Notes: a model not told the origin generated them from the sequence alone. Positions 11,377-47,319 are shown, numbered from the stretch's first letter. The stretch: 64,000 bases of DNA from an uncultured Actinomycetota bacterium (GCA_963705885.1 OY970120.1:2671219-2735218), one strand, 5' to 3'. A program made the numbers and translations.

Positions 11377-11439
11377 ACTAACCCGGGCGTCGGGCGACCA
11401 CCGAAACGCCGCCTCCAGGCCGTTCCGGCCCCCCGCCGC

Positions 11440-15345: not shown

Positions 15346-15966
15346 CTAGAGGAGGCCCGCGGCGTCCAGCGCGAGGTAGACCAGGTCGACGTCGGTCGAG
15401 TCGCCGCTGCGGGCCAGGTCGCGCACGTCGGCGACACCGACGACGACCGGCTCGCAGTACTCGTCACCGCCCCAGGACACGACCTCGCCGGTCACCCGGC
15501 AGCCCCGGGCGATGACCACGTGGCGGCGCCAGGTGGACGCGCCGAACGCCCAGCACGACCCGGCGGGCTCGACGGAGTCGCAGGAGTAGCCGGTCTCCTC
15601 GCGCAGCTCGCGCGCGGCGGCGTCGTGCAGGTCCTCCCCCGGGTCGACGATGCCGCCGGGCAGGTCCAGGACGATCGCCGACGGCCCGGGCCGGAACTGG
15701 CGGGTGAGCACGACCCGGTCGTCGTGGGTCAGGGCCAGGACGGCGACGGTCGTGAACGGGGTGGTGTGGATGTCCCAGTCGGACACCGAGCCGTCGGGCA
15801 TGCGGTAGGTGCGCGTCGTGACCGGCAGCCACCCGTCGGTGCGGGGTCGCTCGGCGAGCAGGCGCCAGGGCTGCACCCGGCGCGCCCCGTCGGCCGCGGT
15901 CACGGGGTTACTGCTGCTCGTCCTGCCCGGCGTCGGGCTCCGGGCCGGGGGGCTCGTGCGAGCCAC
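15346..15966 (-). CDS. NUDIX hydrolase (ADP-ribose pyrophosphatase-like)
   Basis: NUDIX box [24 protein letters not shown]. The 5' end overlaps the prcA 3' end; the true start is probably the GTG near 15903. Same strand and directly downstream of prcA. Confidence 0.7.
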
Positions 15967-16732: not shown

Positions 16733-16784
16733 CGTCACGAGGTGCACTCCTGGGTGGGCGTCGGCGGGCCGGTGGTGGTCGTGG

Positions 16785-17639: not shown

Positions 17640-17799
17640 CTGCGAGTCCTCCTCGTCGGTCCGTCATCGAGGCGATGAGGACTGGCACCGACCCTACTGC
17701 CGCGGCCCCGGCCACCGTGGGACGGACAGGCGCCTCGCCGCACCGGCAGCAATGCTTCTCCGACTCCGGTCGCATCGACGGATCTCTGCAGGAAGCCCG

Positions 17800-19642: not shown

Positions 19643-19662
19643 GCGTCGAAGCCTACGCGCGC

Positions 19663-20211
19663 GTGCCAGACTCCTGCCCCGTGGACAGCGCGCGTCGCGC
19701 CGCGACCGGCGAGGAGCAGGTCGCCGTCATCGACGACTCCGGGGTGGTGATCGGCTCGGTGCCCCGGTCGGTCATGCGCCGCGACAACCTGCCGCACGTC
19801 GTGGTCGCCGTGCTCGTTCGCGACCCGGCCGGCCGCGTCTACGTGCAGCGTCGCACCGACACCAAGGACGTGTTCCCCGGGATGCACGACTGCTTCGCCG
19901 CCGGGTGCCTGCAGGCGGGCGAGGAGCCCGCGGCGGCCGCCGCGAGGGAGGCGGCCGAGGAGCTGGGGGTGGTGGGCGTGCCCCTCGCGCCGCTGTTCGT
20001 CACGCGCTACGACGACGAGTCGACCCGTCACCTCTGCCATGTCTACGAGGCGCTCTGGGACGGTCCGGTGACCCACCAGCCCGAGGAGGTCGCCTGGGGA
20101 GGCTGGATGACGGTGGACCAGCTGTGCAGCCGGCTCGCCGACCCCGCCTTCCGCTTCGTGCCCGACGGTCGGGCGCTCGTCGAGCAGTGGCTCGCCGGCA
20201 GGGGCAGATGA
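19663..20211 (+). CDS. NUDIX hydrolase
   Basis: 182 aa. NUDIX box [31 protein letters not shown]. Lies between dop and arc on the opposite strand. Confidence 0.75.
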
Positions 20212-22643: not shown

Positions 22644-22804
22644 GGTGTCACCCTCCCCTGGGGGAAACGCTCGTCCGGGCGTCGTGTCGACCCGGACAGC
22701 CTTGACCCTACCTTCGGCACGTCCGGTTGGGACCTGCAGCGGTGCGTGTCGCACGATCCGTCCGATCTTGCCGGGTCGGCCGGTCGGGGTCGGGCACCGG
22801 CCGG

Positions 22805-24919
<2,115 letters not shown>

Positions 24920-30052: not shown

Positions 30053-30056
<4 letters not shown>
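29382..30056 (-). CDS. HAD-family hydrolase (beta-phosphoglucomutase-like subfamily)
   Basis: GTG start at 30056 (VSRLPAAVLLDLDGTLVDTEP, HAD motif I DxDGT). Motif III K, motif IV VVVEDSPAGIASGLAAG. GTG overlaps the metH stop (GTGA). Confidence 0.75.
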
Positions 30057-33577
<3,521 letters not shown>

Positions 33578-33628
33578 CGCGGGCGAGTCTAGGGCCGGGA
33601 CGACGCCGTAGGCTGGTCGGACCGGAAG

Positions 33629-34537
33629 ATGAGAGACCCAGCCACGCGGAGGAGCCCAGGTGACCACGAGGTGATCGAGCTCGACGGCTACCCCGAGCTC
33701 GTCGACCCGCTGCTGATCGCGGCGTTCGAAGGCTGGAACGACGCGGGCGACGCGGCGACCTCGGCGGTCGAGCACCTGGAGGAGGTCTGGTCCTCGACCC
33801 CGCTGACCGAGATGGACCCCGAGGACTACTACGACTACCAGGTCAACCGGCCGACGGTCTCGGTCGGCGAGGACGGCCGGCGACTGGTCACCTGGCCGAC
33901 GACCCGGGTCTCGTTCGCCCGGCTGCCCGACGTCGGCCGGGACGTCGTGCTCATCCGCGGCATCGAGCCGAACATGCGGTGGAAGCAGTACACCCACGAG
34001 ATCCTCGGCGTCTGCCACGAGCTCGGCGTCGAGATGGTGGTGACCCTGGGGGCGCTGCTCGCGGACTCGCCGCACACGAGGCCGGTCCCGGTGACCGGGA
34101 CGTCCTCGGACGAGGGCGTCGTCACCTCGCTGCACCTCGAGACGTCGCGCTACGAGGGCCCGACCGGCATCGTCGGGGTCGTGCAGGACGCGTGCACCCG
34201 CGCGGGCGTGCCGGCCCTGTCCATCTGGGCGGCGGTCCCGCACTACGTCGCCCAGCCGCCCTGCCCGAAGGCCACGCTCGCGCTGCTGCGCCACATCGAG
34301 GACCTGCTCGACGTGCCGATCCCCCTCGGCGAGCTGCCCGACGACGCGCGCGCCTGGGAGCGCGGTGTCGACGAGCTCGCGGCCGAGGACACCGAGGTCG
34401 CCGACTACGTCCGCTCGCTCGAGGAGGCCAAGGACCTCACCGACGCGCCGGAGGCCTCCGGTGACGCGATCGCGCGGGAGTTCGAGCGCTACCTGCGCCG
34501 CCGCGGCGACGAGCCCGGCCCCCACCCCCGCCCCTGA
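33629..34537 (+). CDS. PAC2 family protein (proteasome assembly chaperone 2-like)
   Basis: 302 aa. N-terminus PELVDPLLIAAFEGWNDAGDAAT... is typical of the actinobacterial PAC2 family (Rv2125-like). Acidic C-terminal tail. Confidence 0.8.
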   Translation: MRDPATRRSPGDHEVIELDGYPELVDPLLIAAFEGWNDAGDAATSAVEHLEEVWSSTPLTEMDPEDYYDYQVNRPTVSVGEDGRRLVTWPTTRVSFARLPDVGRDVVLIRGIEPNMRWKQYTHEILGVCHELGVEMVVTLGALLADSPHTRPVPVTGTSSDEGVVTSLHLETSRYEGPTGIVGVVQDACTRAGVPALSIWAAVPHYVAQPPCPKATLALLRHIEDLLDVPIPLGELPDDARAWERGVDELAAEDTEVADYVRSLEEAKDLTDAPEASGDAIAREFERYLRRRGDEPGPHPRP

Positions 34538-34637
34538 CCCCCCCCACCGTCGGTAGCAGGCGCGCAGGCGCAGGGCGGGGCGCGGCCAACCGTGGGTGAT
34601 CATGCGGGGTGCGGGTGGCCGGGGGGGTTGTGGTGCG

Positions 34638-35870
34638 TCAGAGGCGGATGCCGAGGAGGGCGTTGACGGCGCGGGACACGACGCCGGGCGCACCCTCGTC
34701 GGTCCCGGACCCCGCCTCGGCCTGGGTGACCCAGTGGTCCACGGCCGTGAGCGCCCCCGGCGCGTCGAGGTCGTCGGCCAGGTGTCGCCGGAGGGCGTCG
34801 AGCACGGCGTCCGGTGACGGACCGCCGTTGCGCGACACCGCGGCCTGCCAGCGGGCCAGGCGGGCCTCCGCCGAGGTCAGGTCCTCGTCGGTCCACTCCC
34901 AGTCCGAGCGGTAGTGGTGCGCGAGCAGCGCCAGCCGCAGGGCCATCGGGTCGTGGCCCTGCGCGCGCAGCGTCGACACGAACACGAGGTTCCCCCTGGA
35001 CTTCGACATCTTCTCGCCGTCGAGCCCGACCATGCCGGCGTGCACGTAGTGCCGCGCGAACGGCCACGACCCCGTGAGCACGTGCGCCTGCGAGGCGCTC
35101 ATCTCGTGGTGCGGGAAGACCAGGTCGCTGCCGCCGCCCTGCACGTCGATCGCCGTGCCGAGCCGCTCCAGCGCGATCGCCGCGCACTCCAGGTGCCAGC
35201 CGGGCCGTCCCGGAGGGAGCGCGTCGCCCGCCTCCCACGCCGGCTCCCCCGGCCGCGCCGCCTGCCAGAGCAGACAGTCCAGCGGGTGCTTCTTGCCCGG
35301 CCGCTCGGGGTCGCCGCCGCGCTCCGCCGCCAGCGCGAGCATCGTCTCGTCGTCGAGCCGCCCGACCCCGCCGAACCGCGGGTCGCTGTGCACCGAGAAG
35401 TACATGTCGCCGTCGACCTCGTAGGTCGCGCCCGCCTCCCGCAGCCGCTGCACGGCGACGGCGATCTCGGGGATCGCCTCGACCGCCCCGACGTAGTCGC
35501 GCGGGGGCAGGATGCCGAGGGCGGTCATGTCCTCGCGGAACAGGGCCGTCTCGCGCTCGGCCAGCTCCTGCCAGTCGTGGCCGTCACGGACCGCGCGCTC
35601 GAGCAGCGGGTCGTCGACGTCGGTGACGTTCTGCACGTAGTGCACGTCGTGCCCGCCGTCGAGCCAGACGCGGTGGACGAGGTCGAACGCGAGGTACGTC
35701 GCCGCGTGACCCATGTGGGTCGCGTCGTAGGGCGTGATGCCGCACACGTACATGCGCGCGGTCGGGCCCGGGGCGGTGGGCCGCACCTCGCCGGTCGACG
35801 TGTCGAACAGGCGCAGCGACAGCCCCGACCCCGGCAGGGACGGGATCGCGGGAGCGGGCCAGGCGTGCAC
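34638..35870 (-). CDS. mshC: L-cysteine:1D-myo-inositol 2-amino-2-deoxy-alpha-D-glucopyranoside ligase MshC
   Basis: Class-I aaRS-like HIGH ([10 protein letters not shown]) and KMSKS motifs. Near-colinear with M. tuberculosis MshC ([13 protein letters not shown]...[13 protein letters not shown]...[10 protein letters not shown]...[12 protein letters not shown]). Confidence 0.9.
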
Positions 35871-35887
35871 GCGGGGATCCTACGTGC

Positions 35888-36685
35888 CTAGAAGGGGGGC
35901 CACGGGATCGCCGGCCAGCCCTCCGAGGGGTACGGCAGGTGGCCGGCGTCGAGGAGCCGGTCGACCCGGCGCCGCAGGGCCAATACCTCGGCCGGCGCGA
36001 CGAGCCCGGACAGCTCGGCGCCCAGTGGTCCGTCCAGCCGGCCGCACAGCTCGCGCAGCAGCTCGCGCTCGACGTCGGTCAGACCCTCGCCGGCCCAGCC
36101 CCAGAGGACCGTGCGCAGCTTGGGCTCTCGGTGCAGGCACACGCCGTGGTCGACCCCGCGTACGACGCCGTCCGGCCCCGGCAGCACGTGGCCGCCCTTG
36201 CGGTCGGCGTTGTTCAGCACGACGTCGAGCAGGGCCATCCGGCGCAGGCGCGGGTCGTCTGCGTGGGCCAGCACGACCGGCTCCCCGCCGGTGCCGAGAG
36301 CGTCCAGGACGTGCCGCCATCCGTCGGGCACGGCGTGCGGCGCGAGCACGTCGACCAGACCGGCCGCCTCGTCGGTGTCGACCCAGAGCTGGCACATTCC
36401 CTCGCCGAAGGGTCCGTCGCGCAGCACCGTCGGCGGGACGACGTCGAACCCGCCGGCCACCGAGAGGACGTACGACGCGACCTCGCGGCCGGCCAGCGAC
36501 CCGTCGGGGAAGTCCCAGAGCGGCCGCTCCCCCGCGACCGGCTTGTAGACGCACCGCTCGACGACACCGTCGTGCTCGATGCTGCAGAACAGCGTCGCGT
36601 TCGAGGCCTCGACGAGACGGCCCTGCACGGTGACCTCGCCGTGGCGCAGCAGCTCGAGCGCGGTCGCGACGTCGATCTCGCTCAC
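35888..36685 (-). CDS. SCO1664-family protein (Rv2133c-like, conserved actinobacterial, function unknown)
   Basis: Start trimmed to the GTG at 36685 (VSEIDVATALELLRHGEV...), because the track ORF would otherwise overlap the upstream DUF3090 gene. Conserved neighbour of DUF3090 and mshC. Confidence 0.65.
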   Translation of the reverse strand: MSEIDVATALELLRHGEVTVQGRLVEASNATLFCSIEHDGVVERCVYKPVAGERPLWDFPDGSLAGREVASYVLSVAGGFDVVPPTVLRDGPFGEGMCQLWVDTDEAAGLVDVLAPHAVPDGWRHVLDALGTGGEPVVLAHADDPRLRRMALLDVVLNNADRKGGHVLPGPDGVVRGVDHGVCLHREPKLRTVLWGWAGEGLTDVERELLRELCGRLDGPLGAELSGLVAPAEVLALRRRVDRLLDAGHLPYPSEGWPAIPWPPF

Positions 36686-36701
36686 GGCCGGCCCGGCGGC
36701 G

Positions 36702-37268
36702 TCAGCGGCGGTAGCCGTTGGCCCGCGGGCACACGTGCCCCTCGGCGTCCAGCGGGCCCCCGCAGAACGGGCAGGGCGGCCGCCCGGCCGAGACCACGGC
36801 CTGCGCACGGGAGACGAACGATCGCGCGACCGGGCCGGGGATACGCACGCGCAGCAGCGGCGGCCCCTCGTCGTCATCGCCGGTGATGAGCGGGGTCTCG
36901 TCGTCCTCGTCGTCCTCGGTCAGCGCCTGCGCCTCGATCACGAGAACCTCGTCGGACTCGTCCCAGGCCAGAGCCATCGTGCCGACGCGGAACTCCTCCT
37001 CGATCGGGCTCGCCAGGGGCGCCGAGTCCTCGACGTCCGTCGGCGTGATGGCGGGCACGGGCGCCTCCCCGGACGAGAGCCGCACGACCTCGTCGAGCAG
37101 TGCCTCCACCCGCTCGGCGAGCACCGACACCTGCTGCTTCTCCAGCGCCACGCTGGTCGTGCGCCCACCGCCGGAGGCCTGCAGGAAGAAGGTGCGCTGT
37201 CCGGGCTCGCCGACGGTGCCCGCCACGAAACGGTCGGGCGGGTCGTACTCGAACACGATCCGGGCCAT
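36702..37268 (-). CDS. DUF3090 family protein (Rv2134c-like)
   Basis: 188 aa. MARIVFEYDPPDRFVAGTVGEPGQRTFFLQA..., acidic linker, C-terminal CPFCGGPLDAEGHVCPR zinc-ribbon-like motif. Confidence 0.7.
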   Translation of the reverse strand: MARIVFEYDPPDRFVAGTVGEPGQRTFFLQASGGGRTTSVALEKQQVSVLAERVEALLDEVVRLSSGEAPVPAITPTDVEDSAPLASPIEEEFRVGTMALAWDESDEVLVIEAQALTEDDEDDETPLITGDDDEGPPLLRVRIPGPVARSFVSRAQAVVSAGRPPCPFCGGPLDAEGHVCPRANGYRR

Positions 37269-37285
37269 GCGCCGACCCTATGCGC

Positions 37286-38005
37286 TCAGCCCCGGCCACC
37301 GGCGCCCGCGCCGCCCCCCACCGGGGCGTCGGACGACGGCGCCTTCCGCCGTCGGGTGCGCCGCCGCGGAGGAGCCAGGAAGCCCAGGTCGCCCCCGGTG
37401 TCGTTGGAGCGGACGACGAACGGGCGCAACGGGGTGTAGGTCACGACGCTCACCGACGCCGGGTCCACCAGGATCCGCTGGAACTGGTCGAGGTGCATCC
37501 CCAGCGCGTCGGCGAGGACCGCCTTGATGACGTCGCCGTGCGAGACGACCGCGTAGACCGCGTCGTCGCCCAGCCGCGCGTTCCAGTCGCGCACGGCCTG
37601 CACCGCCCGCGACTGCATGTCACGCATGGCCTCGCCTCCGTCGCCGGGGAAGGTCATCGCGGACGGGTGGGACTGCACGACCTTCCACAGCGGGTCCTTG
37701 GCGAGCCGCTTGAGCTCCTGGCCCGACCAGTCGCCGTAGCGCACCTCCCCGACCCGGTCGTCCGCGTGGCGCTCGACGCCCTCGCGGCCGGCGAGCAGCA
37801 GGTCGGTCGTCTCCTGGCAGCGCTGCAGCGGGCTGCTGACCACGCACGCCAGCGGCACGGGCGTCAGCCGCGCGGCGAGCGCGCCGACCTGGTCGCGGCC
37901 GGTGTCGTCGAGGGCGACACCCTCGGTCCAGCCGGCGAGGACCCCCGCGCCGTTCGCCGCGGTGCGGCCGTGGCGGACGAGCAGGACGGTGGTCACGAGG
38001 AGCAA
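37286..38005 (-). CDS. histidine phosphatase family protein (phosphoglycerate mutase-like)
   Basis: RHG motif (LLVRHGRTAANG) and catalytic His in VVSHGDVIKA. The start may be the GTG at ~37996. Confidence 0.75.
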   Translation of the reverse strand: MLLVTTVLLVRHGRTAANGAGVLAGWTEGVALDDTGRDQVGALAARLTPVPLACVVSSPLQRCQETTDLLLAGREGVERHADDRVGEVRYGDWSGQELKRLAKDPLWKVVQSHPSAMTFPGDGGEAMRDMQSRAVQAVRDWNARLGDDAVYAVVSHGDVIKAVLADALGMHLDQFQRILVDPASVSVVTYTPLRPFVVRSNDTGGDLGFLAPPRRRTRRRKAPSSDAPVGGGAGAGGRG

Positions 38006-38048
38006 CAGTACGAGACCCCGCGGCCCCTCCGTCGGTCACAATGGGCGC

Positions 38049-39023
38049 GTGATCGTCGACTGCGCGCTCTACCACCACGGGGTGCGCGAGCTCGTCGACG
38101 AGGACCTGGGCGAGGCACTCCGCGCCGCCCGGGCGCGCGGCGGCAGCTTCATCTGGATCGGCCTGCACGACCCGACGCACGACGAGCTGGAGAAGGTGGC
38201 GGCCGAGTTCGCGCTGCACCCGCTCGCGGTCGAGGACGCGGTCAAGGCACACCAGCGGCCCAAGATCGAGGAGTTCGAGGACTCGCTGTTCGTGGTGCTC
38301 AAGACGGTCCGCTACGACGAGGCGACCCAGCAGGTCGAGCTCGGGGACGTGATGCTCTTCCTCGGCGACTCGTTCGTCGTCTCGGTGCGCCACGGCCAGG
38401 CGCGCGCGCTCACGGGCATCCGCCGTCGCCTCGAGGCGGAGGGGCACCTGCTCGACTGCGGCCCGTCGGCGGTGCTCTACGCGATCTGCGACGCCGTCGT
38501 CGACGACTACAGCGCCATCGCCCTCGCCGTCGAGGAGGACATCGAGGAGGTCGAGGAGCGGGTCTTCTCCCCGGACCGCAGCAACGACGCCGAGCGCATC
38601 TACAACCTCAAGCGCGAGGTGATCGAGTTCCGGCGAGCCGTCCGTCCCCTGGTCGACCCGATGAGCCGGCTGGCGGCGGGCATCGTCCCGCGGGTGCACG
38701 AGACCCTGCACCCGTTCTTCCGCGACGTCGCGGACCACGCCGTCCGCGTGGCCGACCAGGCCGACGGCTTCGACGACCTGCTGTCGTCGGTGCTCAGCGC
38801 GAACCTCGCCCAGGTCGGCGTGCAGCAGAACGCCGACATGCGCCGCATCTCGGCCTGGGTGGCGATCGCCGCCGTCCCGACCGCCATCGCCGGCATCGAG
38901 GGCATGAACTTCACGAACATGCCCGAGCTGACGTGGCGCTACGGCTACCCGATGGTCCTCGTCCTCATGGTTGTCGCCTGCACGGCGCTCTACAGAGCGT
39001 TCAAACGGAGTGGCTGGCTGTGA
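38049..39023 (+). CDS. corA: magnesium/cobalt transporter CorA
   Basis: Start trimmed to the GTG at 38049 (VIVDCALYHHG...). Cytoplasmic funnel domain, two C-terminal TM helices with the GMN motif (GIEGMNFTNMPEL). Confidence 0.85.
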   Translation: MIVDCALYHHGVRELVDEDLGEALRAARARGGSFIWIGLHDPTHDELEKVAAEFALHPLAVEDAVKAHQRPKIEEFEDSLFVVLKTVRYDEATQQVELGDVMLFLGDSFVVSVRHGQARALTGIRRRLEAEGHLLDCGPSAVLYAICDAVVDDYSAIALAVEEDIEEVEERVFSPDRSNDAERIYNLKREVIEFRRAVRPLVDPMSRLAAGIVPRVHETLHPFFRDVADHAVRVADQADGFDDLLSSVLSANLAQVGVQQNADMRRISAWVAIAAVPTAIAGIEGMNFTNMPELTWRYGYPMVLVLMVVACTALYRAFKRSGWL

Positions 39024-39033
39024 AGGACTCGGC

Positions 39034-39060
39034 GGCCGGAGGAAAAATAGTCCTCCGGCC
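39034..39060 (+). terminator. putative intrinsic terminator hairpin after corA
   Basis: Perfect 10-bp inverted repeat ggccggagga-aaaatag-tcctccggcc, 11 nt after the corA stop. Flanked by unusually AT-rich sequence (aaaatag, tatttctg) for this genome. Confidence 0.45.
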
Positions 39061-39183
39061 AGCAGGTATTTCTGCCGAGTCATAGCCAGGGACCGCCGTG
39101 GCCAGCCACGATGGCCCTGACGTGCGCCGGGGGGCCGGAGGGCACGGGCAGGACAGACCGGTAGGAACCGACGGCGACTGGGG

Positions 39184-40647
39184 GTGGGCATGCGTTCCAC
39201 GGTGCGCCCCCGCGCAGGCTGGGCCGCCGGCCTGGTGGCCGCCCTGGTCGTCACCGTCGTCGGGACGAGCGCTCCGGCGAGCGCCACCGACCCCACCGCC
39301 ACCCCGACCGCCAGCGCCACCGCCACCGCGGACGGCGACGGCCTGACCAGGGCCGAGCGCCGGGCCAAGCGCGCCGAGGCCCGGAAGGCCAGGGCCGAGC
39401 GCGCCGAGGCCAGAGCGGCAGAGGCCGCCGAGGCGAAGGCCCGGGCGGAGGCCAAGTCAGAGGCCGAGGCGAAGGCCGCCGAGGCCGCCGCGCTGGCCGA
39501 GGAGGCGGCGCACGACGCCGCCGCGCTGGTCGAGGCGTCGAAGGAGCTGGCGAAGGCCAAGGCCGACCTGACGCTCGCGCAGGTGGCGCTCACGACGGCC
39601 CGCGAGGACCTCGAGACGGCGCGGGCCCTCGACGCCCAGGCGCAGACCGACCTCGACGCCGCGGTGCTGGCCGAGGAGCGTGCGGCCCGCGAGCTGGCCG
39701 ACGTCGAGGCCCGCATCCTCATGCGACAGGGAGACCTCGGCCGCCTGGCCCGCACCGCGTACCAGTCCAACGGCTCGATGGGCGAGTGGGCGATCGTGCT
39801 GTCGTCCGCCAGCCCCAACCAGCTCGCCGAGCGCCTCGCCTTCCTGCAGAGCGTCGGCGCCGCGGGCAACGCCGTCCTCGCCGACCTGGCCGCCGACAGG
39901 GCCGAGCTGCTCAACGCGCAGGCCCGGCTCTCGGCCGCCCGCGCGGAGGAGGAGGTCCAGCGCGCCGCCGCCGCGACGGCACTCGCCACCGTGCGCGCCA
40001 AGGAGATGCTCGCGGAGGCGGCGGAGAAGCAGGTCGACGCCGTCGTCGCGGCCCGCAAGGCGGCCTTCGACGCCGCCCGCGAGGCCGCGGTCGAGGACAA
40101 GCGGCGCTACCAGGTGCTGGTGGTGCAGTCCGGAGCGCTCGGCGCGCGCATCAACGAGCTGCACGCGGAGCTGGCCGGGTCCGGCAAGGTCCCGAAGGGC
40201 ACCGGTGAGTTCGTGCTGCCGGGCACCGGCGACGTGACCTCGCCGTTCGGGCCGCGCCTGCACCCGATCCTGAAGTACGTGAAGGTGCACACCGGGACCG
40301 ACTTCGGCGCCGGTGACGGCATCGTCTACGCCGCCGACGCCGGGGTCGTGCTGCTCACCGAGTACAACGTGGCGTACGGGAACATGACCGTCGTCGACCA
40401 CGGCCGCATCGGCGGGCTGCGCGTCACCACGCTGTACGCGCACCAGTCGGCCGTCGGGGTCGAGCCGGGCGACAAGGTCGTGCGCGGCCAGGCGATCGGC
40501 GTCATCGGGTCGACCGGCTACTCGACGGGTCCGCACCTGCACTTCGAGGTCAGGGTCGACGGCGAGCCGTTCGACCCCGCGCCCTTCCTCAAGGGCGCGG
40601 TGCTGCCGACCAGGCTGGGACAGGACGTGGGCCGCGCACGCCAGTGA
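39184..40647 (+). CDS. secreted coiled-coil M23 family metallopeptidase (peptidoglycan endopeptidase)
   Basis: Signal peptide, long Ala/Glu/Arg-rich coiled coil, C-terminal LytM/M23 domain (HTGTDFGAG...YNVAYGNMTVVDHG...TGPHLHFEV). Confidence 0.8.
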   Translation: MGMRSTVRPRAGWAAGLVAALVVTVVGTSAPASATDPTATPTASATATADGDGLTRAERRAKRAEARKARAERAEARAAEAAEAKARAEAKSEAEAKAAEAAALAEEAAHDAAALVEASKELAKAKADLTLAQVALTTAREDLETARALDAQAQTDLDAAVLAEERAARELADVEARILMRQGDLGRLARTAYQSNGSMGEWAIVLSSASPNQLAERLAFLQSVGAAGNAVLADLAADRAELLNAQARLSAARAEEEVQRAAAATALATVRAKEMLAEAAEKQVDAVVAARKAAFDAAREAAVEDKRRYQVLVVQSGALGARINELHAELAGSGKVPKGTGEFVLPGTGDVTSPFGPRLHPILKYVKVHTGTDFGAGDGIVYAADAGVVLLTEYNVAYGNMTVVDHGRIGGLRVTTLYAHQSAVGVEPGDKVVRGQAIGVIGSTGYSTGPHLHFEVRVDGEPFDPAPFLKGAVLPTRLGQDVGRARQ

Positions 40648-40707
40648 GCGTGACCCGGAGCCTGCTCGCTCGTTTGTCACGGTGGTCCCGTGGCAAAGGA
40701 GTAGGTC

Positions 40708-42126
40708 ATGCGCACACGCCTGGCAGCGGTCGCTGCCGCCTCGACGGCGGCTGCCGTCCTGGTGGGTGGGTCGCCGGCCGGTGCGACGAGCGGCCTGACC
40801 GTCCCCACCCCTGCCGTCACCCCGCTGCCGACGGTGTCGGTGCCGGTCCCCCTGCCGACCAAACCGACCGACCCCCTGCCGAGCCCGTCGCTGCCCGTGC
40901 CCGTCCCGTCGGTGCCCGGCACCGGCGGTGTCGGAGGCTCCGGCGGGTCGGGAGGCACGGGCGGCACGAACCCCGCGCCTGGCGGCCCCTCCGCCGGGAC
41001 GGACGGGTCCGGCAAGGCGTCCGCGACGTCCGCGCGGGCCGAGCGGGCTCGGGACCGCCGGGCGCGCGACGCGACGCCGATGCTCGCGGGCACGCCGCAG
41101 GCCAGGGACCTCATCGACGACGAGAGCAGCCCGGCCCTGCTCAGGGCGAGCCGCGACTTCCTGGCCGCCGACCAGGGCATCGCCGAGATCGCCCGGCAGA
41201 AGCGGATCATGGCCCAGCTCGAGCAGGCGGCGGCCGAGAAGGCCGCCACCTACCGGGCGATGGACCTCGACGTCCTCACGGCGACGAGCGCTGCCCAGCA
41301 GATGCACGAGCGCTACGACTCGGTGCGCGGCCAGCTGGCGGCCGACGCCCGCACGGCGTACGTCACCGGACGGCCGACCACCGACGACGGCGCCGTCACG
41401 GGCATGGCGATGGCGCTCGAGCGGCTCGTCGACGGCAGCACGCGGGCGGACCTGCGCGTCGGCGACCTCACCGTCCGCCGGGACACGGTGCGCGCCGAGT
41501 TCGAGGCGCTCTCGACCCGCTACGGCCAGGCGAAGAAGGCGCTCGACGACGCCAGCCGCCGCCTGACGAGGCTGGCCGCGCAGCGATCGGCCGCGCTGCA
41601 GGCGGTGCAGGCCGCCGGCGCCGGCGACCGGGCGCTGCACCAGGCGCGCATCGTCGAGTCCGGGCAGCTCGGCGCGCAGATCCGCGCGGCGTCGACAGGT
41701 CTCGAGCGGGCCGGGACGACCGTGCAGGGCAGCGGGGAGCTCGCCCGGCCGGTCGCCGGTCAGGTCACCTCGCCCTTCGGCATGCGCCTGCACCCGATCC
41801 TGCGCTACACCAAGCTGCACACCGGCACCGACTTCGCGGGCGGTGACCCGACCGTGCGCGCCGCCGACGACGGCCGCGTCGTCATGACGGTCGTGAGCAC
41901 TGCCTACGGCAACTTCACCGTCGTGGACCACGGCGTCGTGGACGGCAAGCGCGTCACCACGGCGTACGCGCACCAGGCGCGGTTCCTCGTCGCCGAGGGC
42001 GACGCCGTCCGCAAGGGCCAGCCGATCGGCATCGTCGGGTCCACCGGCTACTCGACCGGCCCGCACCTGCACTTCGAGGTCCGCGAGGACGGCACGGTCG
42101 TCGACCCCGCCCGCTACCTCGGCTGA
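40708..42126 (+). CDS. secreted coiled-coil M23 family metallopeptidase, paralog of the preceding gene
   Basis: Signal peptide, Pro/Gly-rich linker (GGSGGSGGTGGT), coiled coil, M23 domain (HTGTDFAGG...TGPHLHFEV). Confidence 0.8.
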   Translation: MRTRLAAVAAASTAAAVLVGGSPAGATSGLTVPTPAVTPLPTVSVPVPLPTKPTDPLPSPSLPVPVPSVPGTGGVGGSGGSGGTGGTNPAPGGPSAGTDGSGKASATSARAERARDRRARDATPMLAGTPQARDLIDDESSPALLRASRDFLAADQGIAEIARQKRIMAQLEQAAAEKAATYRAMDLDVLTATSAAQQMHERYDSVRGQLAADARTAYVTGRPTTDDGAVTGMAMALERLVDGSTRADLRVGDLTVRRDTVRAEFEALSTRYGQAKKALDDASRRLTRLAAQRSAALQAVQAAGAGDRALHQARIVESGQLGAQIRAASTGLERAGTTVQGSGELARPVAGQVTSPFGMRLHPILRYTKLHTGTDFAGGDPTVRAADDGRVVMTVVSTAYGNFTVVDHGVVDGKRVTTAYAHQARFLVAEGDAVRKGQPIGIVGSTGYSTGPHLHFEVREDGTVVDPARYLG

Positions 42127-42630: not shown

Positions 42631-43455
42631 TCAGGCGTCGATGACGCCGCCGGCCAGCAGCGCCATGACCACGAGCCCGAGCAGGATGCGGTAGGCGACG
42701 AACGGCCGGAAGGTGTGCGTGGCGATGTAGCGCAGGAAGAAGGCGATGACGCCGAGCGCCACGAAGAACGCGATGACGGTGGCCACCAGCGTCGGCCCCC
42801 AGGTGACCGGGGCCTCGCCGGACACGACGTCCTTGAGCTCGAACAGGCCCGACAGGACGACGGCCGGGATCGCGAGGAGGAACGAGTAGCGCGCGGCTGC
42901 CTCGCGCCGGTAGCCCATGAGCAACCCGGCCGTGATGGTGCCGCCGGACCGCGAGACGCCGGGGATCAGGGCCAGTGCCTGCGCGCCGCCGTAGGCCAGC
43001 GCGTTCTGGAAGGTGAGCCGGTCGAGCGGCTTGGAGTTGCGCGCCACGTGGTCAGCCACGCCGAGGACCACGCCGAACACGACGAGGGTGCTGGCGATGA
43101 GCCACAGGTTGCGGAACGTGTCCTCGATCGTGTTCTGGAACAGCAGACCGAGCACGCCGATGGGCAGCGTGCCGACGATGACGTACCAGCCCATGCGCGC
43201 GTCGAGCTCGCCGCGCAGCTCGGGCCGGAACAGCGAGAGGCTCCACGTCCGCAGGATGTTCGCGATGTCGCGGCGGAAGTAGAGCAGGACGGCGGCCTCG
43301 GTGCCGAGCTGGGTCACGGCCGTGAACGCGGCGCCCGGGTCCTCCCAGCCGGCGAGCTCGGCGACGATGCGCAGGTGCGCGCTGCTGCTGATCGGCAGGA
43401 ACTCGGTCAGCCCCTGCACGAGGCCGAGCACGACGGCCTCGAACCACGAGAACAC
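42631..43455 (-). CDS. uppP: undecaprenyl-diphosphate phosphatase UppP (BacA)
   Basis: 274 aa, 8 TM. Signature motifs [14 protein letters not shown] and [10 protein letters not shown]. Confidence 0.9.
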
Positions 43456-43461
43456 GGGCGG

Positions 43462-44512
43462 TCAGTCCCCCAGGCCGGACTCGTCGAGCGCCTCGGACAC
43501 CGTCCGCAGCGTGGCGACCCGCTCGTCGAGGCTCCCGGCGTACGACGCGACGGCGAGGGTCGTCACCCCTGCCTCGGCGAACGCCGCCAGCCGGTCGCGG
43601 ATGCGCTCGCGCGGCCCGATGAGCGACGTGCGGTCGATGAACTCGAACGGCACGGCCTCGGCGGCGTCGCGGTGCTGGCGGGCCAGGTAGAGGTCCTGCA
43701 CCGTTGCGGCGGCCTCCTCGTAGCCCATCCGCACGGCCAGGCGGTTGTAGAAGTTCTGCTCGCGGCTGCCCATGCCGCCGACGTAGAGGGCGGCGTAGTG
43801 GCGCAGCGGGGCGGCGCAGGCCTGCAGGTCGTCGCCGACGACGACGGGCACGGTGGGCACGACGTCGAACCCGGTCATGTCCTTGCCGGCCGTCGCGCGC
43901 CCGGCCCGGATGTGGTCGGTCGACTCCTTCGCGTGCTCGGGGGCGAAGAAGATCGCGAGCCACCCGTCGGCGATCTCGCCGGTCAGCTCGAGGTTCCTGG
44001 GCCCGACGGCCGCGAGGTAGAGCGGGATGTGCTCGCGGACCGGGTGCACGGTGAGCCGCAGCGCCTTGCCGGGACCGTCGGGCAGCGGCAGCGTCCAGTG
44101 CGTGCCCTCGTGCACGACCTTCTCACGGGCGAGCGCCATGCGGACGATCTCGACGTACTCGCGGGTGCGGGCCAGCGGCTTGTCGAAGCGCACGCCGTGC
44201 CAGCCCTCGGACACCTGCGGCCCCGACACGCCGAGGCCGAGCCGGAACCGGCCGCCCGACAGCGAGTCGAGCGTCGCAGCGGTCATGGCCGTCATCGCGG
44301 GCGTCCGGGCGGGGATCTGGAAGATCGCCGACCCGACGTCGATGCGCTCGGTCTGCGCCGCCACCCACGCAAGCACCGTCGCGGCGTCGGAGCCGTAGGC
44401 CTCGGCGGCCCACGCACGAGTCGTAGCCCAGCCGGTCGGCCTCCTGGGCCAGGGCGAGGTTGTCCCGGTCGTTCCCGGCACCCCAGTAGCCGAGGTTCAC
44501 AGCGAGTCGCAT
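43462..44512 (-). pseudogene. LLM-class F420-dependent oxidoreductase, disrupted by a 1-nt frameshift (or sequencing error)
   Basis: The N-terminal 33 aa (MRLAVNLGYWGAGNDRDNLALAQEADRLGYDS) are in the frame of ORF 44123..44686. The remaining ~310 aa (WAAEAYGSDAATVLAWVAAQTERIDVGSAIFQIPARTP...) are in the frame of ORF 43462..44481. The break is at ~44405-44412, inside the conserved LGYDS-VWAAEAYG junction. Confidence 0.6.
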
Positions 44513-44540
44513 GGAGGTCGACCCTATAGATTCGCCGGTC

Positions 44541-45508
44541 ATGGAGCAGCGCAGCCTCGGCCGGTCGGGCCTGACCGTGAGCCGGCTCGGCCTCGGGACC
44601 ATGACCTGGGGCCGCGACACCGACGAGCACGAGGCCGCCGACCAGCTCTCGATGTTCCTCGAGGCGGGCGGGACGCTGCTGGACACGGCAGCCGGCTACG
44701 GCGACGGCGAGTCGGAGCGGGTGATCGGCGGGCTGCTCGCCTCCAAGGTCGACCGGGAGGAGGTCGTGCTCGCGACCAAGGCCGGCGTCTCCCGTCGTAC
44801 CGGCGAGCGGGTCGTCGACACCTCGCGGCGCGCGCTCCTGGACGCGCTCGACGGCTCGCTGCTGCGGCTCGGCACCGACCACGTCGACCTGTGGCAGGTG
44901 CACGCGTGGAGCGACCGCGCGCCGCTGGAGGAGACGCTGTCGGCGGTCGACGCGGCCGTCACGTCGGGGCGCGCGCGCTACGCCGGCGTCTCGAACTACT
45001 CGGGCTGGCAGACGGGGCAGGCGGTGACCTGGCAGGAGGCCTGGCCGGGCCGCGCGCGGATCGTCTCGACGCAGATGGAGTACTCCCTGCTCCAGCGCGG
45101 CATCGAGCGGGAGGTGCTGCCCGCGGCCGCGGCGCTCGGGCTCGGCGTCCTGCCGTGGTCGCCGCTGGGTGCGGGGTGCTGACCGGGAAGTACCGCGGCG
45201 GCACCCCGGCCGACTCGCGCGCCGCCTCGCCGCACTTCGCGCGGTTCATCGAGCGCTTCCTCGACGACCGCTGCCGCCGCATCGTCGACGCGGTGGCGAC
45301 GGCCGCCGACGGGCTCGACGTGGCGCCGCTGGAGGTGGCGCTGGTGTGGGTGCGGGACGCGGCCGGTGTCACCGCGCCGATCGTCGGGGCGCGCACGGCA
45401 GCCCAGCTGCGGGCGTCGCTGGACGCCGAGGGCCTGACCCTGCCGGCCGAGATCCGCTCCGCGCTCGACGAGGTCTCCGCTCCCCCGACGGGCTACCCGG
45501 ACGGGTGA
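44541..45508 (+). pseudogene. aldo/keto reductase, disrupted by a 1-nt frameshift (or sequencing error)
   Basis: N-terminal 2/3 (MEQRSLGRSGLTVSRLGLGTMTWG...LPWSPLGAGC*) is in one frame and ends at 45182. The C-terminal third (VLTGKYRGG...IVGARTAAQLRASLDA) continues in the +1 frame (ORF 44891..45508). The conserved WSPLGRGVLTGKY is split at ~45168-45180, consistent with one missing base. Confidence 0.6.
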
Positions 45509-45560
45509 GTTCGCCGGGTCCTGCCGCGTCGGCGGGGCGGACTGGGCCACACTGGGACCG

Positions 45561-45746
45561 ATGGCGGAGTGGGAGTACCAGCACCTCTACCTGCCGCGCG
45601 GCACGAGCCGGGGCGCCGCGCGGCGACTCCTGACGGACCACGCCGAGTACGGCCACTGGGAGCTCACCCGGCTGCGCCTGCACGCCGACGGCAGCCGCCG
45701 CGTGGTGCTGCGCCGCAAGGTGATCCGGGTGGTCCGCACCGCCTGA
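45561..45746 (+). CDS. conserved actinobacterial small protein (DUF5703-like), function unknown
   Basis: 61 aa, MAEWEYQHLYLPRGTSRGAARRLLTDHAEYGHWELTRLRLHADGSRRVVLRRKVIRVVRTA. Near-perfect GC3 bias. The family assignment is from memory and not certain. Confidence 0.5.
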   Translation: MAEWEYQHLYLPRGTSRGAARRLLTDHAEYGHWELTRLRLHADGSRRVVLRRKVIRVVRTA

Positions 45747-45764
45747 CGATCGGCAGCGCGTACG

Positions 45765-47078
45765 TCAGCAGGTGGACAGGAAGCGGTCCAGGACGCGCGT
45801 ACCGAATCGCAGCGAGTCGGTCGGCACGCGCTCGTCGACGCCGTGGAACATGCCAGTGAAGTCGAGGTCCGGGGGCAGCCGCAGGGGCGCGAAGCCGAAG
45901 CCACGGATGCCGAGCAGGCTGAAGGACTTGTTGTCGGTGCCGCCGGACAGGCAGTAGGGCACGGCGCGCGAGCCGGGGTCCTCGGCCTGCAGCGCTGCGA
46001 CCATCGCGTCGACGAGCGGCCCGTCGAAGGTCGTCTCGAGGGCGATGTCGGTGATGACCTCCTCGCGGCGGACGTCCGGGCCGATCAGCTCGTCGATGGT
46101 CGCGAGCAGCTCGTCCTCGAAGCCGGGGAGGAACCGGCAGTCGACGAACGCCTCGGCCGACTGCGGGATGACGTTGTGCTTGTAGCCCGCCTTGAGCATC
46201 GTCGGGTTGGCCGTGTTGCGCAGGGTGGCGCCGACGATGCGGGCGAGGGTGCCGAGCTTGGACAGCGCGGGCTCCGGGTCCGACAGGTCCACGTCGATGC
46301 CGAGGGCGTCGGACATCTCCTCGAGGAAGCGCTGCACGGTGGGCGTCATGCGCACGGGCCACTCGTGGCGCCCGACCCGCGCCACCGCCTCGGCCATCGC
46401 GGTCACGGCGTTGTCGTCGTTGACCATCGACCCGTGCCCGGCACGGCCTTCGGCGACCAGGCGGAGCCAGCGGATGCCCTTCTGCGCGGTCTCGATCAGG
46501 TAGACCCGCTCGTCACCGACGGAGAACGAGAACCCCCCGACCTCGCTGATGGCCTCGGACACGCCCTCGAACCGGCCGGGGTGGTTGTCGACCATCCAGT
46601 GCGCGCCGAGCTTGCCGCCGGCCTCCTCGTCGGCGAGGAAGCACAGCACGACGTCGCGCGGCGGGCGGCGGCCCTCGCGGCGCCACTGGCGCACGACCGC
46701 GAGCACCATCGCGTCCATGTCCTTCATGTCGACGGCACCGCGGCCCCAGACACAGCCGTCGACGACCTCGCCGGCGAAGGGGTCGTGGGTCCAGTCGCGG
46801 GCCTCGGCGGGCACGACGTCGAGGTGCCCGTGGACCAGCAGCCCGGGGCGGGACGAGTCCTCTCCCTCCCAGCGCACGACGAGGCTCGTGCGCCGCTCGG
46901 CCGACTCGAAGACCTCGGGCTCCAGTCCCACCTCGGACAGCAGGCCCGCGACGTGCTCGGCCGCCGCCCGTTCCCCCGGCCCGCTGCCGTCGCCGTAGTT
47001 CGACGAGTCGATGCGGATCAGGTCGCGGCAGATGTCGACGACCTCGGCCTCGGCCGTGGGGACGGCGGGGTCGGGCAC
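45765..47078 (-). CDS. M20/M25/M40 family metallo-hydrolase (dipeptidase-like)
   Basis: 437 aa. Motifs HGHLDVVP, ADEEAGG (DEE metal ligands), GHGS, and the dimerisation domain. Rv2141c-like. Confidence 0.85.
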   Translation of the reverse strand: MPDPAVPTAEAEVVDICRDLIRIDSSNYGDGSGPGERAAAEHVAGLLSEVGLEPEVFESAERRTSLVVRWEGEDSSRPGLLVHGHLDVVPAEARDWTHDPFAGEVVDGCVWGRGAVDMKDMDAMVLAVVRQWRREGRRPPRDVVLCFLADEEAGGKLGAHWMVDNHPGRFEGVSEAISEVGGFSFSVGDERVYLIETAQKGIRWLRLVAEGRAGHGSMVNDDNAVTAMAEAVARVGRHEWPVRMTPTVQRFLEEMSDALGIDVDLSDPEPALSKLGTLARIVGATLRNTANPTMLKAGYKHNVIPQSAEAFVDCRFLPGFEDELLATIDELIGPDVRREEVITDIALETTFDGPLVDAMVAALQAEDPGSRAVPYCLSGGTDNKSFSLLGIRGFGFAPLRLPPDLDFTGMFHGVDERVPTDSLRFGTRVLDRFLSTC

Positions 47079-47224
47079 GGTGCCTCCTCGGGGGCCGGTC
47101 GGACACGGTCATCCTGCCCCACGGGCCCTTCCGCCGATGCGTGGCGGGCCCGCCGGGTTTGCTAGGGTTGCCTGCGCACTTCGGGACGGCCGCGAGGCCG
47201 GGCCGGGTGCGTGCAGGACACCTC

Positions 47225-47310
47225 GTCCGGGTGGCGGAATTGGCAGACGCGCTAGCTTGAGGTGCTAGTGCCCTTTACCGGGCATGGGGGTTCAAGTCCC
47301 CCCTCGGACA
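47225..47310 (+). tRNA. tRNA-Leu (anticodon GAG), class II with long variable arm
   Basis: Read directly from sequence. Acceptor stem GTCCGGG/CTCGGAC (one GU pair), D-arm GCGGAATTGGCAGACGC, anticodon stem-loop CTAGC-TTGAGGT-GCTAG (anticodon GAG), 17-nt variable arm, T-arm GGGGG-TTCAAGT-CCCCC, discriminator A. CCA is not encoded. Confidence 0.85.
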
Positions 47311-47319
47311 CGCATTGCT

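Follow-up and report, generated by a model that had tools for sequence, protein, structure and literature searches.

The window analysed here is a 64,000-nt stretch of DNA from an uncultured Actinomycetota bacterium. Between positions 33,629 and 38,005 it holds five genes. A PAC2-family gene lies on the plus strand (33629–34537; PF09754, E = 1.5e-66) and is convergent with mshC (35870–34638, 410 aa), the last of four minus-strand genes that run in the order histidine phosphatase (37996–37286, 236 aa), DUF3090 (37268–36702, 188 aa), SCO1664 family (36685–35888, 265 aa) and mshC. All five genes exceeded the curated family cut-offs, confirming the positions and families proposed in an earlier, sequence-only reading of this DNA. 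The mshC product scored 651.3 bits against the TIGR03447 equivalog (cut-off 485.1), the SCO1664-family protein 358.8 bits against TIGR03843 (172.4), and the DUF3090 protein 225 bits against PF11290 (27; E = 6e-67) and 241 against TIGR03847 (117). The phosphatase matched PF00300 (E = 2e-45) and TIGR03848 (297.6 bits; cut-off 203.9).

Read from the sequence, the gaps on the minus strand are 17 nt (phosphatase/DUF3090), 16 nt (DUF3090/SCO1664) and 17 nt (SCO1664/mshC). The first three genes had been described as a trio with gaps of 17 and 18 nt; the former value stands, while the latter was measured as 16 nt. Because the same spacing extends to mshC, the tightly packed genes number four, not three. 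Upstream, corA, encoding a Mg2+/Co2+ transporter (38049–39023, plus strand; PF01544, TIGR00383), diverges from the phosphatase gene across 52 nt (37997–38048). No other non-coding DNA lies ahead of the four genes, so the promoter presumably sits there. Simple scans of the 52 nt found no sigma-70-like promoter, SigH/SigR-type motif or intrinsic terminator, and the cluster itself contained no terminator-like site in such scans.

The TIGR03447 equivalog match identifies the mshC product as the cysteine:GlcN-Ins ligase of mycothiol biosynthesis. MshC is a paralogue of cysteinyl-tRNA synthetase (CysRS), and the CysS model TIGR00435 reached 283.7 bits with this protein, below its cut-off of 340. The closest structures were those of M. 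smegmatis MshC (3c8z, 8hfm; E = 1.6e-159), and the translation carries a class I HIGH-type motif (THMGHAATY) and a KMSKS motif. The PAC2 gene, which is syntenic in most loci, is orthologous to ParJ (SCO1662) of Streptomyces and Rv2125 of M. tuberculosis; its product matched the S. avermitilis PAC2 family protein 3mnf at E = 4.5e-108 and Rv2125 (5un0) at E = 1.9e-88. The SCO1997-type paralogue was rejected as its counterpart, with weaker matches of E = 1e-19 to 1e-27 (6.5e-19 for SCO1997, 3e35).

The cluster opens with a gene for a branch-1 histidine phosphatase that belongs to the MSMEG_4193/Rv2135c family. It has an alternative TTG start at 38005; in the 236-aa product of the source's gene call, RHG occupies residues 9–11 (VRHGRT) and a catalytic-type SHGD follows downstream. 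NCBIfam names TIGR03848 the 'MSMEG_4193 family' and a 'putative phosphomutase'; from the locus mapping in the sequence-only reading, we take this family to include Rv2135c. Among solved structures, the small-molecule phosphatases PhoE, PspA and CobC come closest. Phosphoglycerate mutase was rejected as an assignment, since its equivalogs scored far below cut-off (NF038349, 73.5 against 225; TIGR01258, 19 against 81.7), and the model for bifunctional RNase H/acid phosphatase, NF005567, matched at E = 2e-25, also below its cut-off. Like Rv2135c, the window protein is a branch-1 histidine phosphatase and not a phosphoglycerate mutase, but it has a canonical RHG where Rv2135c has RHA (PMC3866925). 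Rv2135c hydrolyses small phosphoesters, with a Km near 10 mM for all tested substrates; acid phosphatase activity was demonstrated and mutase activity was absent (PMC3866925). Together with ParJ, which controls ParA polymerisation in Streptomyces (PMC4255298), this overturns the view that mshC alone in the block has a known function.

The SCO1664-family match is full-length, covering model positions 1–253 of 253 in TIGR03843. An upstream ATG at 36877 was listed by the ORF tool; the GTG at 36685 gives 265 aa, in agreement with most homologues and the source's gene call. The AlphaFold2 model of the protein (pLDDT 80.9, pTM 0.83) has a predicted bilobal kinase fold with the conserved Lys, catalytic-loop Asp and metal-binding Asp. 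Its top Foldseek matches were PI4K II-alpha 4pla and CtkA 3akk (E = 2e-4, prob 1.0), followed by MavQ, with HipA among the weaker ones (E about 0.1). PF00454 is the only Pfam family matched: 46 of 52 homologues hit it over the catalytic loop at E ≤ 0.1 (best 2.8e-5), all below threshold, and the window protein scored 15.6 bits against a gathering score of 27.1, with coverage limited to that loop. None of the 52 members matched HipA_C (PF07804) at E ≤ 0.1. Residues invariant in the alignment include K48, E68, D161-R-K-G-G-H166 and D179-H-G, and we assume the roles of K48 (ATP binding), D161 (catalytic loop) and D179 (metal binding) from a comparison of motifs rather than from superposition.

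The model, the Foldseek matches and the sub-threshold PF00454 hits support the kinase-like fold guessed at in the sequence-only reading. The SCO1664-family protein is thus predicted to be an atypical kinase of the PI3/PI4-kinase fold, of PI4K-II/CtkA type, with catalytic motifs intact. It shares with PI4K II, H. pylori CtkA and Legionella MavQ the predicted fold, the catalytic-loop D-R-x-x-x-[N/H] and the D-x-G metal-binding motif that follows. Unlike them, it is a 265-aa protein lacking membrane-binding or accessory domains, it invariably has His in place of the catalytic-loop Asn, and its gene is always encoded after the DUF3090 gene; the likeness also stays below the Pfam gathering threshold, at TM-scores of only about 0.45. 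Because the nearest structural neighbours include both lipid/inositol and protein kinases, a small-molecule substrate is equally compatible with the fold.

The DUF3090 protein was modelled confidently (pLDDT 91). The model suggests two consecutive beta-beta-beta-beta-alpha repeats packed into one PUR-type domain, and Pur-alpha was its top structural match by two independent methods. The likeness is to PUR repeat I–II of Pur-alpha and to the Whirly-like fold; it does not extend to sequence. No PUR-repeat signature was found, Pfam returning only PF11290 and a profile search of PDB sequences returning no Pur protein. In contrast to the basic Pur-alpha and Whirly domains, the DUF3090 family is strongly acidic (median pI 4.8; about −20 net charge for the window protein), with an acidic loop in repeat 2 (residues 117–137) and an added C-terminal CCHC zinc knuckle. 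A diverse alignment shows conservation of the knuckle ligands C166, C169, H178 and C180; residues 166–172 read CPFCGGP, and the chain ends in NGYRR. The family has no invariant Ser, Thr or Tyr. Taken together, the Pur-alpha fold, the conserved zinc ligands, the acidity and the lack of an invariant hydroxyl residue suit the role of partner or adaptor more than that of phospho-acceptor or of classical nucleic-acid binder. Nucleic-acid binding looks unlikely, as the acidic composition argues against it.

We surveyed the arrangement in other organisms. The four-gene order is kept in 88 of the 107 loci with enough flank to be evaluated, in actinomycetes with a locus G+C of about 43–75%, within a sample biased by 74 Streptomyces genome loci and by a metagenome set anchored on one subfamily. 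An order repeated in this way is far beyond chance, and the tight linkage proposed for the trio is genuine. Also as proposed, synteny with mshC spans widely separated actinomycetes: it is seen in the window, in Streptomyces and Dietzia, and in uncultured lineages whose locus G+C is about 43%. The SCO1664 gene directly follows DUF3090 in 131 of 137 loci, making these two a near-invariant core pair. Their estimated gap is the shortest in the cluster (median about −7 nt in Streptomyces), and in gene calls they overlap or lie 3–11 nt apart. Spacing between the SCO1664 gene and mshC is loose in Streptomyces, with a median of about 136 nt and values up to about 600. M. tuberculosis presumably has two other genes interposed between mshC and the trio, as the locus numbers in the sequence-only reading indicate.

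The phosphatase is the member most often dispensed with: 30 of 139 loci lack it upstream. These include 12 loci with only the DUF3090–kinase pair; three more have phosphatase, DUF3090 and kinase without mshC. All assignable ones fall within Limnocylindria (Chloroflexota) and have no mshC, CysRS, PAC2 or metH gene within 10 kb. In part, this is the breakdown outside a narrow clade that the sequence-only reading had named as counting against its proposal: the linkage with mshC holds in actinomycetes and is lost outside them, in Limnocylindria. The Chloroflexota kinase retains the YKP lysine as well as the motifs of the catalytic loop and of metal binding. At the Limnocylindrus locus, only 2 nt separate pfk from the trio behind it, and a few Chloroflexota loci carry an FGGY sugar kinase gene after the kinase. 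At two loci, of which at least one is actinobacterial, DUF3090 stands directly before mshC with neither kinase nor phosphatase nearby.

Compared with the actinobacterial TIGR03843/TIGR03847/TIGR03848 trio (SCO1664–1666; Rv2133c–Rv2135c; MSMEG_4191–4193), the window holds another copy with the same families, order and strand, mshC downstream and parJ/Rv2125 beyond. Nothing material differs; the window gaps are uniformly 16–17 nt and mshC is directly next. The block is an ordinary copy of a cluster that is present in nearly all actinomycetes and already catalogued. The sequence-only reading spoke of an undescribed pathway, but the cluster itself is not undescribed: NCBIfam models cover all three proteins, and Chandra and Chater published the SCO1664–mshC linkage in 2013–14 as near-invariable (PMC4255298). 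For C. glutamicum, a putative operon induced as part of the SigH regulon is listed that comprises mshC and its neighbour cg1708, a 'conserved hypothetical' (PMC3489674). The accessible literature assigns no function to the trio. The present analysis adds the kinase model of the SCO1664-family protein, the DUF3090 fold, the locus survey and the Chloroflexota loci without mshC.

We tentatively interpret phosphatase, DUF3090 and kinase as a phosphoryl-transfer module built around DUF3090 and secondarily coupled to mshC, encoded in a standard, vertically inherited actinomycete operon between a divergent corA and a convergent parJ-type PAC2 gene; this interpretation, taken as a whole, falls somewhat short of being probable. 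On the best reading, the module is not a dedicated step of mycothiol biosynthesis. The kinase would use ATP to phosphorylate a substrate, and the phosphatase would remove the phosphate. DUF3090, a putatively non-enzymatic, very acidic protein of Pur-alpha fold with a structural zinc knuckle, would be made in step with the kinase and act as its partner or specificity subunit. The occurrence of the DUF3090–kinase pair alone in Chloroflexota suggests that the module is older than, and separable from, mycothiol synthesis. In actinomycetes it would have been placed ahead of mshC, where it most likely tunes the cysteine-ligation step. Co-expression with mshC would not be obligatory, given the loose Streptomyces spacing, the separate promoter of C. 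glutamicum mshC and the genes presumed to be interposed in M. tuberculosis.

In the version of this module that we prefer, DUF3090 would dock on MshC and bring kinase and phosphatase to it. Even if the module exists as proposed, we consider this version less likely than not; the two loci with DUF3090 and mshC only point to DUF3090 as a hub. It would resemble the control of class I aminoacyl-tRNA synthetases by HipA-type kinases, in which HipA acts on GltX and HipT on TrpS (PMC6581861, PMC8262856). Like HipA and HipT, the SCO1664-family protein is predicted to be an atypical kinase of the same broad superfold, encoded behind a small partner gene, and its gene adjoins that of an enzyme derived from a class I synthetase. 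It differs from them in lying outside the HipA_C family, in not being part of a mobile toxin–antitoxin module and in having a partner other than an HTH repressor; phosphorylation of MshC is purely hypothetical. A hipBA-type toxin–antitoxin pair, domesticated or active, with DUF3090 as antitoxin and the kinase as toxin, is highly improbable. The order of a small protein and then a kinase in tight coupling does recall hipBA and hipBST, and HipA is among the weaker structural matches. However, no member searched matched HipA_C, DUF3090 has no HTH domain, and the kinase is single-copy in the window. Its gene is a near-universal 'signature' of actinomycetes that M. leprae still has as ML1300, and its fixed chromosomal position is unlike the patchy, mobile occurrence of toxin–antitoxin modules.

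On a small-molecule route, the kinase could phosphorylate an inositol-containing metabolite (free myo-inositol, GlcN-Ins or a phosphoinositide), with the trio supplying or recycling mycothiol precursors and the phosphatase serving as the long-missing MshA2, the GlcNAc-Ins-3-P phosphatase, or as a phosphomutase that relocates the phosphate to yield 1L-Ins-1-P for MshA. Phosphorylation of an inositol ring is the activity of PI4K II-alpha and MavQ, both among the best structural matches, and PF00454 is the sole Pfam match. The nearest solved relatives of the phosphatase act on small phosphoesters, Rv2135c is a phosphatase with a Km near 10 mM for every tested substrate, and the MshA2 step is listed without a gene in reviews and a 2026 paper. 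The NCBIfam name 'putative phosphomutase' and the adjoining pfk or FGGY sugar kinase genes point the same way. Yet the trio occurs without mshC in Chloroflexota, the phosphatase is its most dispensable member, and both DUF3090–mshC loci are without a local phosphatase and kinase. This route also gives no role to DUF3090, the best-conserved partner, Rv2135c has no mutase activity, and a kinase and a phosphatase acting on one metabolite would form a futile cycle. Phyletic evidence on the MshA2 identity is mixed. Overall, we regard this route as unlikely. A nucleic-acid function is very unlikely: DUF3090 would bind ssDNA or RNA like Pur-alpha and Whirly, and the enzymes would act on nucleic-acid ends or a bound regulator. 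The CCHC knuckle with its basic tail and the resemblance of the phosphatase to the acid-phosphatase half of NF005567 would suit it, but the acidic loop and low pI of DUF3090 are the reverse of what known Pur and Whirly domains show, the protein has no sequence similarity to the PurA family, and the conserved neighbours include no nucleic-acid enzymes.

It is also conceivable, if rather improbable, that the trio has no functional tie to mshC and is an independent housekeeping module, its place beside mshC, parJ and metH being due to an ancient actinobacterial backbone whose gene order around the Pup-proteasome region has frozen. The window carries this whole backbone (helicase, tatC, a pafB/C-like WYL protein, prcA, prcB, a Pup ligase/deamidase-family gene, the Mpa/ARC ATPase, trmI, a PD-(D/E)XK nuclease, metH, parJ, mshC, the trio, bacA and an M20 peptidase), and the same neighbours recur at loci of about 43% G+C. 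The module stands alone in Chloroflexota, Streptomyces mshC is loosely spaced and C. glutamicum mshC has its own promoter. Against this, the same-strand order and direct adjacency persist while the surroundings vary (corA present or absent, PGI inserted, PAC2 0.1–6 kb away), DUF3090 still immediately precedes mshC where kinase and phosphatase are locally absent, and gaps of 17–31 nt in several lineages imply co-transcription. The link to proteostasis once suggested for the block is overstated at best; its sole basis is the PAC2 name and proximity to the Pup-proteasome genes, a region that is a long conserved stretch of chromosome. Probably outside the module is corA, which is missing from the low-GC, Dietzia and Chloroflexota loci; Streptomyces and related MAGs conserve it beside the cluster, and in most of loci L002–L081 it adjoins in divergent orientation.

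Genes in the G+C-rich part of the window at 28–44 kb (about 0.70–0.76) were called from reading frames with GC3 >0.9 together with family scans. After metH (about 30053–33592, minus strand), a PAC2-family gene lies on the plus strand at 33629–34537 (PF09754, E 1.5e-66). The minus strand then carries mshC at 34638–35870 (TIGR03447, 651 bits against a cut-off of 485), the SCO1664-family gene at 35888–36685 (TIGR03843, 359 vs 172 bits), the DUF3090 gene at 36702–37268 (TIGR03847, 241 vs 117 bits) and a branch-1 histidine phosphatase gene at 37286–37996 (TIGR03848, 298 vs 204 bits); corA follows on the plus strand at about 38049–39023. All of these block assignments exceeded the curated cut-offs of the specific models, and the block that had been described in the sequence-only reading is real, with every gene present. 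For the SCO1664 reading frame an ATG further upstream, at 36877, is also available; the GTG at 36685 yields a product of 265 aa, the length common to most homologues and to the gene call of the source assembly.

Read off the sequence, the gaps within the block are 17, 16 and 17 nt. The tight packing first noted for the phosphatase, DUF3090 and SCO1664 genes (the trio) was thus confirmed, with one gap differing by 2 nt from the value originally given, but the packed unit consists of four genes including mshC rather than three. Motif scans revealed no terminator-like or sigma-70-like sites in 33400–39200, including the interior of the block, and the SigH/SigR-type promoter motif GGAAT-N16-20-GTT had zero matches across the entire window. 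The only RNA element found by Rfam and tRNA scans was a single tRNA-Leu, distant from the mshC block.

The block is a normal copy of a catalogued actinomycete cluster, with nothing peculiar of its own. It had been called undescribed, but each of the three trio proteins has a dedicated NCBIfam model, and these models were presumably built as a 'three-gene system' (TIGRFAMs descriptions). The closeness of SCO1664 to mshC is likewise on record: SCO1664 (M. leprae ML1300) is an actinomycete signature protein, 'generally very close to mshC', for which a tie to mycothiol or inositol biology has been suggested (Chandra & Chater, PMC4255298). The trio belongs to a small set of lineage-specific 'signature' genes that are near-universal in actinomycetes, a group that spans M. 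tuberculosis, M. leprae and antibiotic producers. Our search of the full-text literature found no functional assignment for the trio proteins, only scattered screen hits; MSMEG_4192 turned up twice, once in a ClpC1 interactome and once in a dibucaine Tn-seq. The mshC neighbourhood is not treated in the Aravind-group paper on aaRS-like ligases.

To assess conservation, 171 loci with DUF3090 were gathered: 80 were the closest species-representative genome loci listed by a DUF3090-anchored scan, 11 came from exact-protein look-ups of divergent representatives, and a metagenome scan with a divergent subfamily as its anchor supplied another 80. Because 74 of the 80 genome loci are from Streptomyces, the genome set shows constancy in one genus more than breadth, which rests on the look-ups and the metagenome scan. 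Arrangements were counted in the 107 loci with sufficient flank on both sides. The order phosphatase–DUF3090–kinase–mshC occurred in 88 of these. The earlier view of a conserved and uncharacterised cluster holds. The same trio without adjacent mshC was found in 4 loci, DUF3090–kinase only in 12, DUF3090 alone in 2 and DUF3090–mshC only in 1, with a second such locus on a shorter contig. Streptomyces, Dietzia (Mycobacteriales) and two uncultured actinobacterial lineages (about 43–44% locus G+C) share the full four-gene order, and loci of this kind often carry PAC2 and metH too.

Of 137 loci that extend at least 1 kb downstream, 131 have SCO1664 as the gene right after DUF3090; a phosphatase gene comes before DUF3090 in 109 of 139 loci. 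These figures, together with the arrangement counts, identify DUF3090 and the kinase as the conserved core; the phosphatase is therefore a frequent third member and mshC an actinomycete-specific addition. The four genes form a closely spaced cluster on one strand, and the upstream module is separable from mshC. By estimated spacing, the DUF3090–kinase pair is the tightest and, in Streptomyces, the kinase–mshC pair the loosest. Some longer database proteins resemble DUF3090–SCO1664 or phosphatase–DUF3090 fusions but hold only a truncated half of each domain; we therefore attributed them to frameshifts or faulty gene calls across neighbouring genes and gave them no weight as Rosetta-stone evidence.

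Among the four loci in which mshC is not adjacent, three represent the Candidatus Limnocylindrus type (Chloroflexota), with the trio placed after fumC and pfk; the fourth is Yinghuangia, in which mshC lies 2.7 kb further on. Locus L156, a DUF3090–kinase pair, encodes a DUF3090 identical to an NCBI protein of 'Candidatus Limnocylindrales', with relatives labelled Limnocylindria or Chloroflexota. No MshC/CysRS, PAC2, MetH or CorA homologue was found within 10 kb in any Chloroflexota-type locus. The proposed link to mycothiol is plausible inside the actinomycetes, but the mshC linkage does not reach Chloroflexota. A constant extra partner in the Chloroflexota loci was rejected, since their neighbours vary (DUF4097/DUF2089, Na/Ca exchanger, GT87, M17 peptidase, TreS–Mak, FGGY kinase). 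In the Candidatus Limnocylindrus locus L088 (2880–7381), the trio, fumarase C and 6-phosphofructokinase run on the same strand with gaps of 8, 2, 5 and 11 nt, which hints that the trio is connected with central sugar-phosphate metabolism in these bacteria.

DUF3090 is the sole protein common to the kinase-linked and mshC-linked arrangements. It lies immediately upstream of mshC in L085 (8001–9781, an uncultured actinobacterium) and L086 (2046–4024, unassigned); the SCO1664 kinase and the histidine phosphatase are absent within 6–8 kb in L085 and from the 4-kb contig of L086.

The SCO1664 protein was modelled from an alignment of 52 homologues (pLDDT 80.9, pTM 0.83). In a Foldseek search of the PDB the leading matches were PI4K II-alpha and CtkA, a Ser/Thr kinase of H. 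pylori (E 2e-4, prob 1.0). MavQ, a lipid kinase of Legionella, came next, and RIO1, lanthipeptide-synthetase kinase domains and HipA matched more weakly. Sub-threshold PF00454 matches cover the catalytic loop in 46 of the 52 homologues (best E 2.8e-5), and none of the 52 matches HipA_C. Sequence and profile searches of the PDB with the family gave chance-level matches only. Invariant residues include K48, E68, D161-R-K-G-G-H166 and D179-H-G, which we read, by comparison with the DRxxxN/DxG motifs of PI3/PI4 kinases, as including the lysine that contacts ATP, the residues of the catalytic loop and the aspartate that binds metal; the catalytic-loop asparagine is always exchanged for histidine. 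The early guess of a kinase-like fold was therefore correct, given the top structural matches and the invariant catalytic motifs, and we conclude that the SCO1664 protein is a predicted active atypical kinase. The modelled fold would be compatible with either an inositol compound or a protein as substrate and cannot decide between them.

In the DUF3090 model (pLDDT 91.3, from a diverse 64-sequence alignment) a CCHC knuckle comes after two beta-beta-beta-beta-alpha repeats; PDB sequence and profile searches with this family, too, returned chance-level matches only. The family is strongly acidic (median pI 4.8), and the protein in the window has a net charge of about -20 and an acidic loop of 11 charges. 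No Ser, Thr or Tyr is invariant in the family alignment; the conserved positions include R25, Q30, E43-K44-Q46, F93, R154 and the zinc knuckle. This combination argues against classical nucleic-acid binding and disfavours a phospho-acceptor at a fixed, conserved Ser/Thr/Tyr; it favours a role as a protein-binding partner. DUF3090 is a zinc-knuckle, non-catalytic-looking protein whose gene is tightly coupled to the kinase gene. Alignments revealed two C-terminal types, CPRANGYRR in mshC-linked loci and C[PA]R..G/A-x-L-N/H in DUF3090–kinase loci without mshC, which suggests that the tail may carry partner specificity.

Contrary to the sequence-only reading, mshC is not the sole member of the block with functional data. 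The best solved relatives of the PAC2 gene are S. avermitilis 3mnf (E 4.5e-108) and M. tuberculosis Rv2125 (E 1.9e-88), with SCO1997-type paralogues matching far more weakly, and in S. coelicolor the mshC-adjacent PAC2 gene is parJ (SCO1662), whose product regulates how ParA polymerises. The histidine phosphatase of the block carries the catalytic motifs; purified Rv2135c is an acid phosphatase without mutase activity, with a Km near 10 mM on all substrates tried (PMC3866925). According to work cited in a 2026 M. abscessus study, which handles mshC as a drug target, mshC is essential in M. tuberculosis. In C. glutamicum, a SigH-dependent promoter of its own lies 141 nt upstream of mshC (cg1709). 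The gene is also assigned to a putative operon together with cg1708, a 'conserved hypothetical' that is itself 1.75-fold induced in an rshA mutant (PMC3489674).

The kinase and phosphatase may add and remove phosphate on a common substrate, with DUF3090 in complex with the kinase, and in actinomycetes the module would act at the cysteine-ligation step. In the version we prefer, DUF3090 would dock on MshC and present it to both enzymes. Two points make this attractive: MshC is paralogous to CysRS, and DUF3090–mshC pairs survive without the kinase. HipA on GltX and HipT on TrpS act similarly on class I synthetases (PMC6581861, PMC8262856). Spelled out, DUF3090, as an acidic adaptor of Pur fold that might even mimic tRNA, would recruit a PI4K/HipA-like kinase and the histidine phosphatase to CysRS-derived MshC as a housekeeping phospho-switch on mycothiol synthesis, the Chloroflexota pair serving another class I enzyme; we consider this detailed proposal improbable. 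Such a switch would parallel the control of class I aminoacyl-tRNA synthetases by HipA-type kinases, but without toxicity.

The strongest competing explanation is a small-molecule route, in which an inositol kinase works with MshA2 or a phosphomutase. The resemblance of the SCO1664 kinase to PI4K-II and MavQ, the activity of the phosphatase's relatives on small molecules and the MshA2 step of the mycothiol pathway, still without a gene, all speak for it; yet it leaves DUF3090 without explanation and fits badly with a module that occurs without mshC and can dispense with the phosphatase. Alternatively, the trio–mshC adjacency might reflect nothing but a conserved backbone; the presence of the whole Pup-proteasome backbone in the window favours this reading, and the persistence of direct adjacency where the surroundings change weakens it. 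Should the phosphatase be MshA2, the mycothiol pathway would gain a gene for the last step that lacks one; should the module control or feed cysteine ligation, it would add a new regulatory layer to thiol redox homeostasis. With the kinase assigned to a PI4K-II/CtkA-like fold, DUF3090 to a Pur-like fold with a zinc knuckle, and the DUF3090–kinase pair recognised as the separable core, this 'conserved hypothetical' cluster becomes directly testable.

The Pup-proteasome backbone of actinobacteria is complete at 2443–23719, mostly on the minus strand, and the mshC block lies about 11 kb beyond this stretch in the same conserved region. The backbone comprises a DEAD/DSHCT helicase (2443–5286), tatC (6158–7048), a WYL/WCX PafB/C-like regulator (9019–10017), FKBP (10417–11439), the proteasome alpha and beta subunits (about 15908–17663), a Pup-ligase/deamidase-family gene (18128–19726), the proteasomal AAA ATPase Mpa/ARC (within 20874–23204) and a trmI-like methyltransferase (22805–23719). 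Between FKBP and the proteasome genes, 12879–15491 (minus strand) encodes a protein of about 870 aa with an Rv2525c-like glycoside-hydrolase-like domain, the remainder of which matched no Pfam family at E<=1e-5. Immediately after corA are tandem paralogues on the plus strand (39121–40647 and 40705–42126), each with a C-terminal Peptidase_M23 domain; the source-assembly gene calls also place an M23 gene beside corA. The stretch at 42631–47311 holds bacA/uppP, a luciferase-like monooxygenase, an aldo/keto reductase, an M20 peptidase and tRNA-Leu(GAG) (47225–47311). The bacA, aldo/keto reductase and M20 peptidase genes also flank the DUF3090 cluster in the low-GC actinobacterial contigs L085 and L090, so backbone synteny reaches past the cluster on the bacA side too.
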